Part shown: positions 8,757 through 15,552 of the stretch, in pieces | How positions within the stretch are numbered: the first letter of the stretch is position 1 | Layout of the letters: each line of letters begins with the position of its first letter | Source: Halomicrobium mukohataei DSM 12286 | Lineage (GTDB): Archaea; Halobacteriota; Halobacteria; Halobacteriales; Haloarculaceae | Assembly (NCBI RefSeq): GCF_000023965.1 | Contig: NC_013202.1 | Span: forward strand, 1,050,001 to 1,082,000 | DNA length: 32,000 nucleotides | Reading direction: 5' to 3' | Position numbers and translations under genes: made by a program | Notes under the pieces: model-generated | The model's database searches: none | What the model saw: the letters and a program-made list of their open reading frames with translations, nothing else | Told to the model about the DNA's origin: nothing

Positions 8757-9590
8757 ATGATTCCGCCACTGGCCCGGCGGTTCGTCGCGGGTGAGACGAC
8801 CGCCGGAGCACTGGAGCACGCGCGACAGTGCAACGAGGAGGGGATCGGCGTCATCCTGAACCAGCTGGGTGAACACTACGACCGTCGCGAACCGGCCAAG
8901 GAGGCCGCCGCGACCTACGAGTCCCTCGTCGAGGAGATCGATCTGGCGGGGCTGCGCGCCTGCCTCTCGATCAAGCCCTCTCAGCTGGGTCTCGACGTGA
9001 GCGAGCAGCTCTTCGAGTCGAACCTCGACAGCGTCGTCACGCACGCCGCGGCCCGCGACGTGTTCGTCTGGATCGACATGGAGGACCACGAGACGACGGA
9101 CGCGACGCTCGACGCCTTCGAGCGACTCGCCCGCCAGACCGACGGCGGCGTCGGGCTCTGCGTGCAGGCGAACCTCCGACGGACGCCCGACGACCTCGAA
9201 CGGCTGGCCGATCTGCCGGGGAAGATCCGGCTCGTCAAGGGCGCGTACGATCCGCCGCCGTCGATCGCGCTCCAGGACAAGGCCGAGATCAATCAGGCCT
9301 ACCGCGACCAGTTGCGATACCTCTTCGAGCACTTCCAGGGCGAGGTCGCCGTCGGCAGCCACGACCCGGAGATGATCGACCTCGCCGCGTCGCTGCACGA
9401 CGAGTACGGGACGCCGTACGAGGTCCAGATGCTGATGGGCGTTCGCGACGACGCCCAGCGCTCGCTGGCGACGGACTGCGAGGTCTGGCAGTACGCTCCC
9501 TACGGCGGCGAGTGGCTCGCGTACTTCTATCGACGCGTCGCAGAGCGGAAGGAAAACGCGTTGTTCGCCCTGCGGGCGATACTCTCCTAG
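8757..9590 (+). CDS. proline dehydrogenase family protein
   Basis: 277 aa, with the FVAGET..A.. N-terminus, LSIKPSQLG, VWIDMED and RLVKGAY motifs typical of the monofunctional PRODH barrel. Confidence 0.75.
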   Translation: MIPPLARRFVAGETTAGALEHARQCNEEGIGVILNQLGEHYDRREPAKEAAATYESLVEEIDLAGLRACLSIKPSQLGLDVSEQLFESNLDSVVTHAAARDVFVWIDMEDHETTDATLDAFERLARQTDGGVGLCVQANLRRTPDDLERLADLPGKIRLVKGAYDPPPSIALQDKAEINQAYRDQLRYLFEHFQGEVAVGSHDPEMIDLAASLHDEYGTPYEVQMLMGVRDDAQRSLATDCEVWQYAPYGGEWLAYFYRRVAERKENALFALRAILS

Positions 9591-9653
9591 CTGGCAGTCG
9601 TCTGACAGAGACGAAGGGAAGGGCTGATAACGGGTGAGGGCTACGGACACCAC

Positions 9654-10319
9654 ATGGCCTCGGCGACGTGGAAACGTGACTTCGCGAGCGGACTGATCAT
9701 CCTGCTCCCCCTGTTGGTGACGGTCTACGTACTCGCCTACCTCTACGGCATTCTGGCCTCGTTACCGCTCGCGAACGTCATCACCCCCGAGCGGCTCGCT
9801 CCGCTGCTCAACATTTCGGCGGAACACCAGCTGATGACACAGCTGGTGACGTTCGTCCGCGTGCTCACGACCCTCGCGGTCTTCGTGCTCCTCGTGTTCT
9901 CGATCGGCTATCTGATGCGGACCGCTTTCGGCGACGTGATCGAACAGGCCCTCGACGACATGATGAATCAGGTCCCCGGTCTCCGCGTGGTGTACAACGC
10001 CTCGAAGATGGCCGTCGAGACGGCCGTCTCGGGGGCCGACGAACTCCAGACGCCGGTGAAACTCGAAGTGTGGGACGGGCTGCGGATGACGGCGTTCAAG
10101 ACCGGCCAACAGACCGAGGACGGACGGGACGTGCTCTTCTTGCCGACCGCGCCGAACATCACGACCGGCTACGTCATCGAAGTCGAGCCCGACGCCTACG
10201 AGGAGACCGACGAGCGCGTCGAGGACGCGCTGACTCGGATCCTCTCGGCCGGCTTCGGCGACGCCGAGGAGAATCACACGCAGGTGCCGGCCGGACTCGT
10301 CGACGCCGACGACGACTAG
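9654..10319 (+). CDS. DUF502 domain membrane protein
   Basis: The N-terminus KRDFASGLIILLPLLVTVYVLAYL and the later FLPTAPNITTGY segment match my recollection of the DUF502 pattern. Confidence 0.7.
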   Translation: MASATWKRDFASGLIILLPLLVTVYVLAYLYGILASLPLANVITPERLAPLLNISAEHQLMTQLVTFVRVLTTLAVFVLLVFSIGYLMRTAFGDVIEQALDDMMNQVPGLRVVYNASKMAVETAVSGADELQTPVKLEVWDGLRMTAFKTGQQTEDGRDVLFLPTAPNITTGYVIEVEPDAYEETDERVEDALTRILSAGFGDAEENHTQVPAGLVDADDD

Positions 10320-10328
10320 ACTACCACC

Positions 10329-10362
10329 TTTTTCCAGCGGGGGTGCGCTCCGCGCACCCCGC
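10329..10362 (+). terminator. oligo-T run plus GC hairpin downstream of the DUF502 gene
   Basis: A T5 run at 10329-10333 lies 10 nt after the stop. It is followed by the stem GGGGTGCGC-TCC-GCGCACCCC. Confidence 0.35.
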
Positions 10363-10386
10363 TTGCAAAAACGTGGGCGAAAAAGA

Positions 10387-10458
10387 CCGGAATCGCCGAC
10401 GGCGATTCCGGTGAACCGGGCGACCTGCCGGGTCCTGACGGACCGCTCGGTCGCCCGG
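10387..10458. other. two further perfect hairpins (11-bp and 10-bp stems, the second with a nested 5-bp stem)
   Basis: The first hairpin is CCGGAATCGCC-GAC-GGCGATTCCGG (10387-10411). The second is CCGGGCGACC...GGTCGCCCGG (10416-10458) with an inner GGTCC-TGAC-GGACC stem. Confidence 0.6.
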
Positions 10459-10603
10459 ATGCTCACAGCCATTGTTTGGTCAGTATATACACTCGTTCTT
10501 TCGACAAATCCGCCGTGTAAGAGCGGGAAACAAAGACTTAGGAATCGCTCAAGACAGCGATTTTATGTAGCTCACAAGAGAGAGTGATCGAATATCTCTA
10601 CCG

Positions 10604-10774
10604 TCACCTTGACAAAATCAGAAGTGCCGCTGCAAGAACTAACACACCAATAGTAACATAAAACAACACTTGAGGGCTGGTGATTAGAACTGCAAACAAA
10701 ATGAGGTACCCAATAATGACGTATGCAGAGATTATTTTCCAGTCGCGTGTGATGGCGTCAGCCGAGTGATTCAT
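10604..10774 (-). CDS. small 2-TM membrane protein (56 aa) in an AT-rich patch
   Basis: I chose the ATG at 10774 (MNHSADAITRDWK...) over the TTG start of the track ORF. Two hydrophobic helices are present. Low-GC codon usage is unlike the neighbouring genes. Confidence 0.4.
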   Translation of the reverse strand: MNHSADAITRDWKIISAYVIIGYLILFAVLITSPQVLFYVTIGVLVLAAALLILSR

Positions 10775-10902
10775 CGGTTTAGTAGCTTTCAATCTATGTT
10801 CATTTGTGCCACGGAAATAGATTCGGTTAACTCGCACATCTACCAAACAGCAGATTCTCCGGAGACACTATGAGACGAACCCAAGTATAGCAGCCGTGTC
10901 AC

Positions 10903-11055
10903 TCAAATCAACTCCTGACGAGACGGTGTCTCACGGCGCAGCGCTGACTCCATCAGCGTCGATTCCACGAGGGGGACATCACCCGAGAACTCGATCTCGT
11001 CGTGCCAGATCTGTAGTTGCTTCGTGCGGGTGTCAAACGACTCGCGCCGCCACTC
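10903..11055 (-). pseudogene. orphan 3' gene fragment without a start codon (…EWRRESFDTRTKQLQIWHDEIEFSGDVPLVESTLMESALRRETPSRQELI*)
   Basis: A 50-codon open frame has strong G/C third-position bias typical of haloarchaeal coding DNA. It has no usable start, and its 5' side runs straight into the family 2 palindromic element. Confidence 0.3.
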
Positions 11056-11138
11056 ATACGGATTATTGTAGCGATTTACCGGTGATCGTCTACTCCGTGG
11101 CGACGATCACCGGTAAGCAACTACAATAAACCGTATCA
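11054..11138. repeat. palindromic element, family 2, copy B (85 bp)
   Basis: In ilvE sense it reads TGATACGGTTTATTGTAG..TTACCGGTGATCGTC-loop-GACGATCACCGGTAA..CTACAATAATCCGTATGA. The inner stem is a perfect 15 bp. The outer arms resemble 30471-30556. Confidence 0.75.
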
Positions 11139-12074
11139 GACGTACTTGAACCAGTCGTCGTACTGCTCGGGTGGCTCTTCGAGGATGTCGAAAAACCGCG
11201 TCTGGATCTCGTCGGTGACCGGCCCCTTCGTTCCGGCACCGATCTCGTTGTCGTCGACGCTGCGGATCGGCGTCACCTCGGCGGCGGTGCCGGTGAAGAA
11301 CAGTTCGTCGGCGGCGTACAGCTCGCCCCGCGAGATGGTGGCGTCGTCGTGGACGGTGTAGCCCAGATCCTCGGCGAGGGTAATGACGCTGCGGCGGGTG
11401 ATGCCGTCGAGGATCGACTCGGCCAGCCCGGTCGTGTAGATCTCGCCGTCGCGGACGAGGAAGATGTTCTCGCCCGGCCCCTCGGCGACGTTGCCCTCCT
11501 TGTTGAGGACGATCGCCTCGCCGTAGTCGTTGCCCTTTGCCTCCAGCGAGGCGAGGACGCTGTTGACGTAGGCTCCCGTCGTCTTCGCGCTGGTCGGGAT
11601 CTGGCTGGAGGCGTGCTTGCGCCACGAGGAGATCGCCGTGTCGATACCCTCTTCGAGCGCTTCCTCGCCGAGGTAGGCACCCCACGGCCAGACGCCGATG
11701 GCGGTCTCGACTGGCGACTCGCTCGGGTTGAGCCCCAGCGGGCCGTAGCCGTAGAAGGCGATCGGGCGGATGTAACACGACTCCAGCCCCTCCCGACGGA
11801 TCAGCTCGACGGTCGCCTCGGTGAGTTCTTCCGGCGTGTAGGGAATCTCGATGTCGTAGACCTTCGCCGACTCGTACAGTCGGTCGAGGTGTTCCTCCCA
11901 GCGGAAGATCGCCGGGCCGTCGTCGGTGTCGTAACAGCGCACGCCCTCGAAGACGCCGGTGCCGTAGTGTAGCGCGTGAGTCAGGACGTGGACCTGTGCG
12001 TCCTCGAAGTCGACGAACTCGCCGTCCTGCCAGATCGTCTCGACCCCTTCGAACATCTCCGGGCGCTCGCTCAT
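11136..12074 (-). CDS. ilvE: branched-chain amino acid aminotransferase
   Basis: Class IV aminotransferase fold, with HALHYGTGVFEGVRCY, KTTGAYVNSVLA, EGPGENIF and FFTGTAAEVTPI. I chose the ATG at 12074 (MSERPEMF). The stop TGA is the first triplet of the family 2 element. Confidence 0.9.
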   Translation of the reverse strand: MSERPEMFEGVETIWQDGEFVDFEDAQVHVLTHALHYGTGVFEGVRCYDTDDGPAIFRWEEHLDRLYESAKVYDIEIPYTPEELTEATVELIRREGLESCYIRPIAFYGYGPLGLNPSESPVETAIGVWPWGAYLGEEALEEGIDTAISSWRKHASSQIPTSAKTTGAYVNSVLASLEAKGNDYGEAIVLNKEGNVAEGPGENIFLVRDGEIYTTGLAESILDGITRRSVITLAEDLGYTVHDDATISRGELYAADELFFTGTAAEVTPIRSVDDNEIGAGTKGPVTDEIQTRFFDILEEPPEQYDDWFKYV

Positions 12075-12229
12075 CGTGCCCACCCCTCGCGTGTGGCGTG
12101 GCGATCACAGCACTGTCCGCAACCAGTGTCCTCGAAGTGCATACCAGGGCATTGCGGCCCATCGTTAAGAGTGTTGACGATGTACGAGTCGATCTGACAC
12201 ACCGCGAGAACGTTCGGCGAGAGCGCCGG

Positions 12230-12289
12230 TTACGCGAGTCGCTCGACCAGCGCGCTGTCCTCGACGTAGGCCAGTCCCTCGCGGTCGGC
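12230..12289 (-). pseudogene. diverged duplicate of the ribB 3' end ([19 protein letters not shown])
   Basis: It aligns codon for codon with the last 20 codons of ribB at 13709-13768 (48/60 nt by my count). The two share an identical 16-mer, CCTCGACGTAGGCCAG, at 12259-12274 and 13738-13753. Confidence 0.7.
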
Positions 12290-12338
12290 ATTGGTTCTAA
12301 TATCTATAGGGCGAAAATACACTATATAAGAAACCGAT

Positions 12339-12638
12339 TCAGGAGAATATTTTGAGTGCCCACAGTACGGCGGCAATGGTCATGAGAATAGTTCCAATAT
12401 ACCAAATCCATGCTTTCGATAGGATACGGGCCCCATCACTATCGAAAGACGGAATTTTACCTGATTTTCCACCAATTGCGTAAAGCATACCACTTGCTAT
12501 CATTAATATACCCGCAAGTGTCATTCTATTCAATACAAAGTGAAAACGCAAATCAGATTCAACGAGCCCGTCAAGAGTTATAATTGTACCAAGTAATACA
12601 GTAGACAATCCAAATGAAATTTTACCCATTCTTCCCAT
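12339..12638 (-). CDS. small 3-TM membrane protein (99 aa) in the AT-rich cassette
   Basis: ATG at 12638 (or 12629). Three hydrophobic segments and low-GC codon usage. It has its own AT-rich upstream region (ATATTATATTTTT). No family recognised. Confidence 0.6.
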   Translation of the reverse strand: MGRMGKISFGLSTVLLGTIITLDGLVESDLRFHFVLNRMTLAGILMIASGMLYAIGGKSGKIPSFDSDGARILSKAWIWYIGTILMTIAAVLWALKIFS

Positions 12639-12695
12639 ATCTTTTACACTCCTGAATAATACCCAAGAACCATATTATATTTTTGGCAAATATAA

Positions 12696-13526
12696 TCAAC
12701 CGCAGAGATCTTCCGCGTACTCTTCTTTGATACAGGCGTTAACTGTATCTTTACAGCCCAAACAATCTACGTTACCCAATAGACCCTGGGCGATCAAAGC
12801 GAGTACACACGCGTAGCATGCTGGATTATACCAGCTGGGAACTAATTTACAGCCACTACAACCAACGCCTGTGGCAGCGATACTAGTAATCCGACCCAAG
12901 CATTCTCTGGACGGAGAGCAATTCACCCCAGTTTCAATACGGCAAGTATCACATTCACCTTCAGGAGGGTCATACCAGACTTCATTACCAACACCTTGCG
13001 TACGCAACGTATTGATACTGGTCGAATCAGTCTTGACAATGTCGCCGTCAACATAATATCGTTCAGACTGGAGTGTTGAACCAGTAGACACAATGTTGTA
13101 ACCTGCTACCGTGGGTTCGTTTTCGTTTACTTCTTCTGGATAAGTATCTAATTGATCTATCCCATTATCGAGAATGAATTTTTCTGTCTCGTCTGTATCT
13201 TCGTAAACTGCTGACACGACAACCCTCTCTTCTCCATTTTCTTCGGTTACTCGTGTTGCACTCGCAGATTGCATCGTAACACTTCGTTTACCACCCTCAG
13301 CCGAATCAACAACCATCTCACGCCAGATCTTTCTCCACTCTCTACCAGTTCGCGCCCTTTGTATGGCCTCCCACTTTTCCCAACCCGATAGCTCCACCAC
13401 GTCCATACCTGATAGGTTCTCTGATACTTCTTGGGCAGTGACAGTGCCGGCTGAAACTGTCGTTAAACTGGCTGTACCGAGTGATTTGAGTGCCTTTCTT
13501 CTGGATATTTTATTCTCTTCGGGCAT
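12696..13526 (-). CDS. halocin C8-type bacteriocin precursor (Tat signal, long pro-region, Cys-rich C-terminal domain)
   Basis: I chose the ATG at 13526 (MPEENKISRRKALKSLG.. has a twin-arginine motif) over the TTG track start. The C-terminal ~86 aa contain 12 Cys, including GCSGCK, and end in ...CIKEEYAEDLCG. This resembles my recollection of HalC8 (GCSACK ... ACNRAGLC). The gene is AT-rich. Confidence 0.7.
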   Translation of the reverse strand: MPEENKISRRKALKSLGTASLTTVSAGTVTAQEVSENLSGMDVVELSGWEKWEAIQRARTGREWRKIWREMVVDSAEGGKRSVTMQSASATRVTEENGEERVVVSAVYEDTDETEKFILDNGIDQLDTYPEEVNENEPTVAGYNIVSTGSTLQSERYYVDGDIVKTDSTSINTLRTQGVGNEVWYDPPEGECDTCRIETGVNCSPSRECLGRITSIAATGVGCSGCKLVPSWYNPACYACVLALIAQGLLGNVDCLGCKDTVNACIKEEYAEDLCG

Positions 13527-13708
13527 CGAGTTACTATATATCTCCAAGTAAAAAAAGCTTTCATATTTCAAATATTTAATATTAGATCTACAAGATGTTT
13601 TTAAATAGTTGGAGAATCGCTAATAATCTCCCCTGACGACATGATATGAGTCGTTCATACGTCCTGCGCAGTATATGAGAGAAAAAAATCAACGCATTTT
13701 GTAGATTT

Positions 13709-14377
13709 TCACATCAGCCGTTCGACGAGAGCGCTCCCCTCGACGTAGGCCAGCCCCTCGCGCTCGGCGTAGGCTCGCGCCGCCGCCGGCGTCAGTGCGC
13801 CGCCGGTCTCGTCGTCGAGCATCTCACAGACCACGACTGCCGGGGGCTGGTCGGCCGCCGCGGCGACGGCCAGCCCGAGTTCGGTGTGTCCCAGCCGGTC
13901 CGAGAGCAGTCCGGGCGCACCGCGCAGCAGCGTCACGTGGCCCGGCGACCGGAACTGTTCGGCGAAGGTCGTTCCGTCGGGCTCGCTCGCGGCCCCTGCG
14001 AGTTCGGTGATCGTCAGCGACCGGTCCTCGTCGGTGATGCCGGTGTGGGTGTCGCGGTGGTTGACCGTCAGCGAGAACGACGAGCGTTCGTCGTACCCCA
14101 GTTCGTGATCGGCGGCACTGGGGTGATCGAGCGACTCCTGCATGAACGGCAGGTCGAACGAATGGGCCACCGAATCCGAGAGCGCGACACAGACCAGTCC
14201 GCCGGCGTCGTTGCGCAGTCGGGCGACGGCGTCGGGCGTCACTGCGCCGGCCGGATACACCAGATCGACCTCGCCCTCGCGATCGGCCGCGTCGTGGATC
14301 AGGATCGGCTGGCCGCGGCCAAAGGCCGCGATGGCGTCGTCGGCACCCGTCGCTGCCTGCTCACTGCTCCGAGACAT
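13709..14377 (-). CDS. ribB: 3,4-dihydroxy-2-butanone-4-phosphate synthase
   Basis: [32 protein letters not shown] and RSPGHV are the DHBP synthase signatures. It overlaps the ribK 3' end by 17 nt. Confidence 0.9.
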
Positions 14378-15059
14378 GGACAGTCACCTCGTCACCGTCG
14401 GCCAGGCCGACCACGTCGCGGAGTTTCTCCGGGGCGATCACTTCCAGCTGGCTCTCTCCGTGGTGGGTTCGCTCGGGGGCGATGACGTGGGCGGGCTCGT
14501 ACTCGCTGTCCCCGGCGACGACGGAGGCCGGATAGCAGTACGCCGGGCCGTACGTTCGCTCGTCGTCCTCCCAGCCCTCGATCGTGACGGGCTCGAAGGC
14601 GCTCAGCCGAGCGCGCTTGCGGACGCTCTCGTCGACGAGGTCGACGTTGAGCGTCCCGGCGAAGGGCTCGTAGCCGAGCTTGTCGATGAACTGCTCCATG
14701 TACCCTGGCAGCGTGATGTAGTGTCGCCCCTCGCCCATGCCGGAGGTGACGATCCCGCCCAGATCGACGCCGACGGCTCCCTCGAAGATCCGTCGGTAGT
14801 CGGCGTACTCTCGCTGGAGAGCCCGCTCGCCGACCTCGCTGATCTGGATGAGCTGTCCGTCGCCGACGATGTCCCGATCGATCATCTCCGCTTCCTCCAG
14901 CCGCTGGAGCCGCCGCGAGGCGGTCTGGTTGGAGGCGTCCAGCCGGTCGGCGAGCGCCGAACAGGACTCCTTTCGCTCGCCTTCGATCGCGCCGTCGAGG
15001 GCCAGCAACTTCAGCGTCGCCAGCTCGTCGTGGCCGACGGCCCGCGTTGTCTCTGCCAT
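14361..15059 (-). CDS. ribK: CTP-dependent riboflavin kinase fused to an N-terminal winged-HTH domain (RbkR-like)
   Basis: The C-terminal half ([23 protein letters not shown]...GTLNVDL...YCYPA) matches the archaeal MJ0056-type kinase. The N-terminal ~90 aa look like a MarR/ArsR-like wHTH. ATG at 15059. Confidence 0.85.
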
Positions 15060-15093
15060 GCACACGAGTTGGCACTATCGCGGGAAAAGGATA

Positions 15094-15110
15094 ACGAATG
15101 TGTCATCCGT
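15094..15110. promoter_or_regulatory. imperfect 7-3-7 palindrome ACGAATG-TGT-CATCCGT upstream of ribK (candidate operator)
   Basis: It lies 35-50 nt upstream of the ribK ATG, next to the AT-rich CGTTATCC stretch. One mismatch in the palindrome. Confidence 0.25.
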
Positions 15111-15226
15111 CACAGTTCTGGAACGGGCGGCAACGGGACTGGCGTTGTCCTCGCTCGTTCCCGGTAGCCACTTGCCCGTCGAGTCGTTACGACCGGTATC
15201 GCCGTCGAGCAGGCGGCCACACTATC

Positions 15227-15499
15227 ATGAACGAAACGGATTCGACCACGTCGGGGCGGCGCGTCGTCGGCTGGGTGTTCGTCGCGGCGCTGGCGCTCGG
15301 CGTGGGCTTCGGTGCCTTCGTCGGTCTCGTGATCAGCAACGACGCCGCCGTCCCGGTCGGTCTCTTCGGCGTCCAGTTTCGCCCTACGCCACTCAACATG
15401 GCCAGCTACGGCGGCGGTGCGGTACTCGCGCTGTCGGGACTCTTCTACGTCGTCATGCGCTACACCCGCCGGTACGACGACGAGATCGAGTCCGTCTGA
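15227..15499 (+). CDS. small 2-TM membrane protein (90 aa)
   Basis: I chose the ATG at 15227 (MNETDSTTSGRR...). Two hydrophobic helices and an acidic C-terminus. Confidence 0.6.
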   Translation: MNETDSTTSGRRVVGWVFVAALALGVGFGAFVGLVISNDAAVPVGLFGVQFRPTPLNMASYGGGAVLALSGLFYVVMRYTRRYDDEIESV

Positions 15500-15552
15500 T
15501 CGCCGCTGTCGCCGAGCGCGTCCGACCCGGCACGAGCGGAGCGAGTGCCGTT

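Follow-up and report, generated by a model that had tools for sequence, protein, structure and literature searches.

Insertion scar with a displaced ribB gene end beside a low-GC two-gene island in Halomicrobium mukohataei

A duplicated gene end beside inserted DNA is a textbook structure, and the scar described here is a new example of an already known kind of event, of modest significance. It lies at the ribB gene of Halomicrobium mukohataei DSM 12286, within a window of 32,000 nt (contig NC_013202.1, forward-strand positions 1,050,001 to 1,082,000; all coordinates without a locus label count from the first letter of this window). A low-GC island of two genes here separates the complete ribB gene from a second copy of its 3' end, which lies just upstream of ilvE. 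A previous reading made from the letters and open reading frames (ORFs) of the window, referred to below as the sequence-only reading, had proposed that a halocin cassette was inserted into the 3' end of ribB, that the incoming DNA supplied a replacement 3' end and that the original end was left behind as a remnant. The core of this proposal is upheld by our analysis, as the remnant proved to be a real, displaced ribB end.

The closest precedents come from bacteria. In E. coli, insertion of e14 gave icd a substitute 3' end with mostly silent or conservative changes, and the C-terminal pseudogene icdC lies beyond the element (PMC13626634). As with e14 (and phage 21) at icd, foreign DNA at the ribB locus occupies the 3' end of a housekeeping gene whose original end is left as a pseudogene, and recombination between the copies would yield a chimeric but complete gene. 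However, e14, a cryptic prophage of 15 kb, encodes an integrase and has been shown to excise, whereas the ribB island measures 1.4 kb and comes without a recombinase or a found vehicle. Unlike e14, the ribB scar also seems to have arrived second-hand, by homologous recombination. The cis-mobilizable elements (CIMEs) of streptococci span 1.2-13 kb, occupy gene 3' ends, are flanked by attachment (att) sites and have no integrase (PMC7563491). The ribB island resembles them in being small and cargo-only, in its direct repeats at the 3' end of a housekeeping gene and in the absence of an integrase, but CIMEs carry the att sites of known families of integrative and conjugative or integrative and mobilizable elements and are mobilised by an element inserting beside them, and no such cognate element was found here. 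For the T6SS (type VI secretion system) effector-immunity arrays in Vibrio cholerae, displacement by homology-facilitated illegitimate recombination was proposed, a process that leaves 3' fragments and orphan immunity genes (PMC5361080). The ribB locus shares with the displacement at T6SS and at Rhs/contact-dependent inhibition (CDI) loci a small two-gene module beside an anchor gene, a displaced 3' fragment downstream and the lack of a recombinase, and at the locus itself a sister species has retained a homologue of the putative immunity gene without a partner. In the bacterial cases, the anchor belongs to the secretion or toxin locus itself, whereas in this archaeon an unrelated gene of riboflavin synthesis takes that role; moreover, the window holds one displaced fragment instead of an array, and toxin and immunity are presumed functions of its two genes.

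The ribB tail duplication and its position

The intact ribB gene encodes a 3,4-dihydroxy-2-butanone-4-phosphate synthase of 222 aa on the minus strand (13709-14377; Pfam PF00926, DHBP_synthase, E 2.4e-51) and ends at 13709, as had been read from the sequence. Its last 19 codons and stop codon (13709-13768) recur at 12230-12289; strand, reading frame and stop position agree between the copies. Our recount of the ungapped alignment agrees with the 48 of 60 identical nucleotides given earlier, and weaker similarity extends to 13776 and 12297, respectively (61 nt at 82%). We refer to the proximal tail (13709-13776, minus strand), which is the working 3' end of ribB, as copy A, and to the distal remnant (12230-12297, minus strand) as copy B. 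The identical 16-mer that had been noticed in both copies, CCTCGACGTAGGCCAG, is located at 12259-12274 and 13738-13753. The length of the AT-rich interval between the copies (12290-13708) was also given correctly, at exactly 1419 nt; its GC content is 41.7%, against 66.3% for the window, and the low-GC DNA starts directly 3' of the ribB stop codon.

The match between the tails is far above chance. When both strands of the window were scanned with the 60-mer, the mean was 17 identities (sd 3.8) and the next best position reached 35/60; 4000 shuffles of a 1.6-kb segment, AT-rich or GC-rich, the check that had been suggested for this alignment, likewise gave at most 35/60. The alternative, a chance similarity or a 60-mer that is part of some unrelated conserved element, for example an RNA or a different gene, can draw on the common codon bias of GC-rich coding DNA and on an additional partial match at 12211-12226. 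It is extremely improbable in view of these maxima, and because copy B shares frame and stop with copy A and is collinear with real ribB ends upstream of ilvE; in addition, Rfam gave no match in 9500-15500, and the 60-mer is absent from this place in relatives. The additional match is formed by the 16-mer CGTTCGGCGAGAGCGC, just 3' of the remnant stop, which agrees with the proximal tail (13719-13734) at 15/16 positions and has hairpin potential on the minus strand (CGGCG-CTCT-CGCCG). Chance apart, this 16-mer could represent a third fragment of the tail or a hairpin resembling a terminator.

Copy B occupies the position expected of a ribB end. The order rfk-ribB-ilvE is conserved across Halobacteria, and ilvE begins 55-150 nt after ribB in many of these genomes. 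Multi-locus comparison identified a conserved motif upstream of ilvE, CATCGTCAACACTCTTAACGATGG, a putative promoter element that lies at 12159-12182 (minus strand) in the window and recurs in many Haloarculaceae, in the comparison loci L002, L004, L012, L013, L023, L056, L060, L062 and L073. The distance from the stop codon of an intact ribB to this motif is 45 nt in L004, 51 nt in L023, 36 nt in L002 and 23 nt in L013; the remnant stop lies 47 nt from it, across a spacer at 12183-12229 (minus strand). The remnant and the sequence downstream of it also align collinearly with the intact ribB ends of the same four loci. Copy B is therefore the ribB end that was left in its original place, and the new end and the foreign DNA lie upstream of it. 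The spacer has no homology to L056 or L073.

Between the motif and ilvE (branched-chain aminotransferase, 312 aa from the ATG; 11136-12074, minus strand; Pfam PF01063, E 7e-51) lies the ilvE leader, a divergent allele in comparison with Halomicrobium katesii. An upstream ORF of 23 codons (MHFEDTGCGQCCDRHATREGWAR*; 12071-12142, minus strand) starts about 17 nt after the motif, and its TGA overlaps the ATG of ilvE (ATGA). An ORF of different sequence occupies the same position in L056 and L073, and the corresponding ATG of L013 and L021 seems to serve as the start of ilvE. The upstream ORF may encode a leader peptide or serve as a coupling device for ilvE.

The island and the remnant are both absent from the nearest relatives. 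In H. katesii, the flanks of which are 95-98% identical to the window, ribB (98% protein identity) is followed by an 80-aa gene for a membrane protein with two segments, and ilvE has 98.4% amino-acid identity to that of the window. The genome GCA_012726095, labelled H. mukohataei but only ~85-93% identical overall, contains ribB, a 78-aa gene and then ilvE. A ribB-like 60-mer in cassette-free relatives had been named as evidence that would speak against an insertion; neither H. katesii nor GCA_012726095 has one near ilvE (best score 33/60 in L073; a single ribB match in L056), and the homology of the relatives with the window upstream of ilvE begins only at the ilvE motif. An empty site, with ilvE directly after ribB, had also been named as something to look for; the cassette is lacking from these genomes, but the 78-80-aa membrane gene stands between their ribB and ilvE. 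Three more Halomicrobium strains have a common ribB type of 225 aa, and a step of two between their protein accession numbers for ribB and ilvE suggests one gene in between. The cassette adjoins ribB solely in H. mukohataei strains: the DSM 12286 and ZPS1 records (CP045142.1, GCA_009217585.1) have an identical ribB protein, and the CP045142.1 locus (L049) is an exact reverse-complement substring of the window.

Three haplotypes are found at the Halomicrobium ribB-ilvE interval: the cassette with the remnant in H. mukohataei, an orphan membrane gene in H. katesii, and the 78-80-aa membrane gene only. The order in H. katesii is ribB, 80-aa gene, repeat, 106-aa gene, ilvE once an inversion is undone. 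This inversion, which split ribB and the 80-aa gene from the 106-aa gene and ilvE, is marked by two inverted copies of a 374-nt repeat about 194 kb apart in KB905378.1 (L054 7006-7379 and L073 5037-5410; 95.7% identical). The repeat has internal inverted repeats and looks like a miniature inverted-repeat transposable element.

Across Halobacteria, the ribB-ilvE interval varies from 55-150 nt to 0.4-4.6 kb containing genes of normal GC content (L057, L060, L062 and L001-L040), and PAS histidine-kinase genes occupy it in the closest metagenomic relatives. The interval thus appears to be a recurrent site of gene gain. No second ribB-tail copy or low-GC gap between ribB and ilvE was detected in about 30 other Halobacteria loci (z <=3.2, gaps of normal GC content), and the arrangement in the window is therefore not a recurrent feature at that depth. 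On the other side of ilvE, between the convergent ends of ilvE and a DUF502 gene, the window holds a second variable low-GC islet (10464-11135, 43-54% GC). This islet encodes an 80-aa hydrophobic ORF without a family match (10604-10846, minus strand), is replaced by an HD-domain gene in GCA_012726095, and is accompanied by a 38-nt inverted repeat (11053-11090 / 11102-11139) that abuts the ilvE stop.

Divergence of the two tails and of the surrounding tract

Copies A and B differ at 12 nt distributed over 10 codons. A residue changes in three of these, and the other seven, TGA to TAA among them, are silent, which confirms that most of the differences are synonymous or conservative. Were 12 substitutions placed at random, the chance of so few amino-acid changes (at most three) would be 3e-4 to 7e-4; for 8 substitutions it would be 0.05. 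Because silent changes are in excess, the divergence arose mostly while both sequences were working ribB ends in separate lineages, and not by decay in place. A change from Gly to Asp in copy B is the single clear mark of decay in the remnant, since Gly is found at that position in 118/120 ribB homologues and Asp in none.

These patterns bear on a simpler explanation, in which about 60 nt of the target were duplicated at insertion long ago and the copies have since drifted to 80% identity in place. The loss of the near-invariant glycine does indicate some decay after displacement. However, such drift fits poorly with the predominance of silent codon changes and the preserved stop and frame, with cargo that still has 41.7% GC in a genome of 66% GC, with the absence of the island from H. 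katesii despite the nearly identical flanks, and with the lack of a transposase and of terminal inverted repeats. We consider an old in-place duplication very unlikely. The sequence-only reading had left the choice between an old event and a heterologous ribB-like sequence; the latter is now favoured, and the former is disfavoured by the small number of amino-acid changes, the unameliorated GC content and the absence from H. katesii. A transposon target-site duplication was rejected as well, since neither a transposase nor terminal inverted repeats were found at the island and a repeat of 60-68 nt that is only 80% identical is too long and too diverged.

Over 57 nt, the two tails differ from each other at 11 positions. 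Copy A differs from both H. katesii and GCA_012726095 at 8, copy B from H. katesii at 8 and from GCA_012726095 at 9, and the two relatives from each other at 5. Likeness to H. katesii or GCA_012726095 could not single out one tail as native, both being 8-9/57 away. Judged by these distances, neither tail looks native to the H. mukohataei lineage; at the protein level, both are of the Halomicrobium-clade type.

The anomaly extends beyond the duplicated tails. The last 88 nt of ribB (13709-13796, minus strand) are abnormally diverged, with 14 mismatches to H. katesii (16%), six of which lie upstream of the duplicated 60-mer. Upstream of these, ribB next departs from H. katesii at 130 and 136 nt before its stop codon (after correction for a 9-column alignment gap), which places the left end of the divergent tract between 88 and 130 nt before the ribB stop. 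Most of ribB, and the CTP-dependent riboflavin kinase gene rfk that overlaps its start (14361-15065, minus strand; Pfam PF01982, E 1.1e-42), differ from H. katesii by 1-3%, and the ilvE coding sequence by ~1%. The ilvE leader, from the motif to the ATG (about 60-66 nt), has 24 mismatches to H. katesii, whereas H. katesii and GCA_012726095 differ there at only 6. As the divergence between these two relatives is ordinary at this locus, the window lineage is the odd one out. The tails, the ribB end and the ilvE leader are diverged while the flanks are near-identical, and the scar was therefore probably made elsewhere and imported en bloc. From these tract boundaries, a block of ~12065-13796 probably entered the H. 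mukohataei lineage whole, by homologous recombination; it would hold the ribB end with copy A, the island, copy B, the spacer, the motif and the ilvE leader.

Further upstream in ribB, a patch at 14126-14177 has 13 mismatches to H. katesii in 52 nt (SVAHSFD vs GVAESFG) and is probably a separate short recombination tract. The idea of a special mosaic of ribB alleles in relation to GCA_012726095 was dropped in view of the low overall identity to that genome.

The cargo genes and their relatives

As had been described, the island contains only two genes. The first encodes a Cys-rich precursor of 276 aa from an ATG (291 aa from a TTG) on the minus strand (12696-13526), which carries a twin-arginine (Tat) signal, SRRKALKSLG. 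The second, also on the minus strand (12339-12638), encodes a 99-aa protein with three hydrophobic segments according to its hydropathy, a candidate immunity partner. The AT-rich non-coding stretch 5' of the precursor gene (13527-13708, minus strand) presumably contains its own promoter; it has palindromes, and a T-rich run lies ~25-33 nt before the precursor ATG. The C-terminal domain of the precursor, of ~85 aa, holds 12 Cys residues, of which 10 are invariant in the family and one more is nearly so.

Relatives of the precursor are few: an exhaustive HMMER search of 1.84 billion representatives returned 12, and a word-indexed search of 5.8 billion returned two. Tat-signal models match 8 of the 12 family members, and all named members are annotated as 'hypothetical'. 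Neither island gene has a match in Pfam, NCBIfam or PADLOC, and no member of the precursor family matches a Pfam, PADLOC or PDB entry. An AlphaFold2 model of the precursor from a shallow alignment has a mean pLDDT of 68, and Foldseek found no significant fold match to it in the PDB.

The best described counterpart of the precursor is ProC8/HalI, the precursor of halocin C8, whose family is defined by the TIGR04449 model (bioRxiv 10.64898/2026.07.27.741052). The two have in common a length of ~280 aa, a twin-arginine signal, a Cys-rich C-terminal part of ~76-85 aa and a haloarchaeal origin. Unlike halocin C8, however, the window family has no TIGR04449 or Pfam match, and the neighbouring halR, halU and ABC-transporter genes are absent. 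The comparison with TIGR04449 gave no match for the window precursor at E up to 10 and none in the 12 family members, so that the earlier label 'halocin-type' stands for an architectural analogy. In addition, the N-terminal part of ProC8 itself confers immunity, whereas the window gene travels with a separate membrane protein of three segments. The window gene product is a candidate secreted antimicrobial peptide precursor, and the two-gene module is probably a toxin/immunity pair.

Homologues of the 99-aa protein stand beside a precursor homologue in L065 and L069. The closest precursor homologue outside H. mukohataei (45% identity) is found at 1110-2047 of L065, a 2-kb contig of wholly low GC content (31-51%) that hints at the compositional origin of the cassette; a frameshift splits the signal-peptide part of this gene from the rest. 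In L069, the module occupies an islet of 35-47% GC in a contig of ~64% GC, beside a recJ-like gene, and the L068 (Halopiger) family member is located in a low-GC islet that follows the gene for the polD large subunit. No duplicated gene tails were seen at the L068 and L069 modules, the L069 contig ending 236 nt after the precursor gene with its far flank out of view. None of these homologous cassettes is next to ribB, a point that had been put forward for checking.

The closest homologue of the 99-aa protein is the 106-aa gene product of H. katesii (34% identity, E 9e-19). Its gene is normal in GC content, lies directly upstream of ilvE, has no precursor gene nearby and is like an orphan immunity gene. 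Searches of plasmids (PLSDB) and phages with the island DNA and the precursor protein yielded no match, and neither did searches of IMG/VR with 20-21-mers across the junctions and the precursor profile.

Mechanism of insertion and its meaning

The reading that we favour, with a confidence that stops somewhat short of even, is a homology-anchored insertion into ribB of a donor, followed by en-bloc homologous import into the H. mukohataei lineage. The first step would have seen a two-gene low-GC module enter the final 60-68 nt of a Halomicrobium-type ribB; the donor lineage concerned would have had ilvE directly after ribB. Linear DNA would pair by homology in ribB, and its far end would join illegitimately a few tens of nucleotides further on, with no need for a dedicated integrase. 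The incoming DNA would have brought its own ribB 3' end, from another Halomicrobium-clade lineage, and that end would now complete ribB; the resident 3' end would have been shifted 1419 nt downstream, to become a 60-nt pseudo-tail just upstream of an untouched ilvE promoter region. In the second step, the finished block of ~12065-13796 would have entered the H. mukohataei lineage through crossovers 88-130 nt before the ribB stop and at the ilvE start, displacing a resident segment with the 78-80-aa membrane gene. The duplication, its position, its absence from relatives, the constrained divergence and the limits of the divergent tract are observed; the enzymology of the first event and this order of events are what we infer.

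Two features expected of such an insertion are present in the window. A homologous anchor is provided by the Halomicrobium-type ribB tail that abuts the cargo, with a divergent tract reaching 88 nt into ribB, and a displaced resident fragment, copy B, lies downstream of the module at the native distance from the ilvE motif. As this motif follows the ribB stop by only 47 nt and both genes are needed, nearly any viable joint would have to fall within the ribB tail or just beyond it, and a remnant would be likely to result. In favour of the homology-driven route, the island contains neither a recombinase nor space for a decayed one, the collections searched yielded no vehicle, related modules were inserted elsewhere without tail repeats, and the sister species holds an orphan homologue at the same locus.

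Site-specific integration is possible but doubtful. Here, a small integrative element, or what is left of a larger one, with a ribB-like phage-type attachment site (attP) would have integrated by means of a tyrosine-type integrase that is now lost or acted in trans, and both e14 in icd, with its icdC (PMC13626634), and the CIMEs at gene 3' ends (PMC7563491) are close precedents. Direct repeats flank the foreign DNA, the target gene ribB stays intact, the replacement tail ends exactly at the stop codon with low-GC DNA at once after it, and the identical 16-mer could serve as a crossover core. However, no integrase or recombinase was called in the island, where the sequence-only reading had seen no integrase either, or in the 6 kb to each side of it, and none is found among the neighbouring genes (rfk, ribB, ilvE, DUF502, Pro_dh and similar); not even a fragment of one was seen, and the two genes with the upstream region fill the island. 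There is no tRNA in the window. The residues encoded by the 16-mer (L-A-Y-V-E) are the most strongly conserved of the tail, and H. katesii has the identical 16-mer, so that no crossover is needed to explain the identity; we rejected the 16-mer as evidence for a crossover core, since a sequence equally conserved in relatives cannot decide between the routes. Moreover, L068, the only other complete integrated module, lacks a tail duplication, none is seen in the truncated L069 contig, and none of the related modules found lies beside ribB. A similar element is missing from IMG/VR, plasmids and phages, and a non-exhaustive search of 74 loci, IMG/VR, PLSDB and phage records found no cognate integrase-bearing element at the same att site. 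Finally, a crossover within the repeat would leave unexplained the divergence 61-88 nt before the ribB stop, which falls beyond the repeat. Of the integration footprint proposed earlier, the insertion into the ribB end thus stands, whereas integration of the integrase type is unsupported, for want of an integrase, a vector, an attP-bearing element and recurrent targeting of ribB.

A Campbell-type single crossover carried out by the host is less probable still, and we regard it as quite unlikely. Haloarchaea recombine readily, and circular non-replicating DNA integrates by single crossover in laboratory genetics; a 1.5-kb circle with ~68 nt of ribB tail and the cargo could have entered in a natural 'pop-in' of this kind. 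The topology fits, as direct chimeric repeats as long as the homology carried would result. However, 60-68 nt at 80-85% identity offer little for recombination to act on, nothing explains how such a circle would have come about, and no circle or empty site was observed.

Several points weigh against the homology-anchored insertion and subsequent import. The distal joint (12290-12297) has no clear microhomology, with CCAAT facing CCTAC only. The low-GC DNA starts, and the element-side homology stops, exactly at the end of the ribB gene. The attP sites of elements that enter gene 3' ends are built in just this way, with homology ending at the gene end. We know of no demonstration of homology-facilitated illegitimate recombination in haloarchaea. 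The patch at 14126-14177 shows local mosaicism in ribB, which weakens the argument from the left boundary, and the en-bloc transfer is assigned its direction by parsimony over few genomes, three of them by accession numbering only. The exact empty site, a genome with an intact ribB ending like copy B together with this spacer and leader, was not found, nor was a donor genome. The matches listed in the homologue search include no ribB above 72% identity, and an exact search of metagenome contigs for the remnant/spacer junction gave three chance matches, all in unrelated non-haloarchaeal DNA.

The scar records the gain of a probable antagonism cassette without breakage of its essential neighbours ribB and ilvE. 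The ribB gene is full length, the ilvE motif and leader are kept, and the AT-rich region upstream of the precursor gene seems to have come with the cassette. If the two tails recombined, the cassette would be lost and ribB would end in the Gly-to-Asp tail; selection may therefore act against such a loss.

The scar probably also shows a finished arrangement being passed between lineages by homologous recombination. The cargo represents a candidate new archaeocin family with a separate immunity partner. More generally, and only tentatively, haloarchaea may turn over toxin-immunity cassettes without recombinases by way of anchors in the 3' ends of adjacent housekeeping genes, with displaced gene tails and orphan immunity genes as traces, in parallel to module displacement at T6SS, Rhs and CDI loci. 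The cargo here would then be an undescribed and rare family of Tat-secreted 12-Cys archaeocin precursors with a dedicated membrane immunity protein of three segments, moving among haloarchaea in low-GC islets. If the recombinase-free route is true, the displacement of toxin-immunity modules known from bacteria would extend to archaea, and the Halomicrobium ribB-ilvE interval would be a small, experimentally tractable hot spot.

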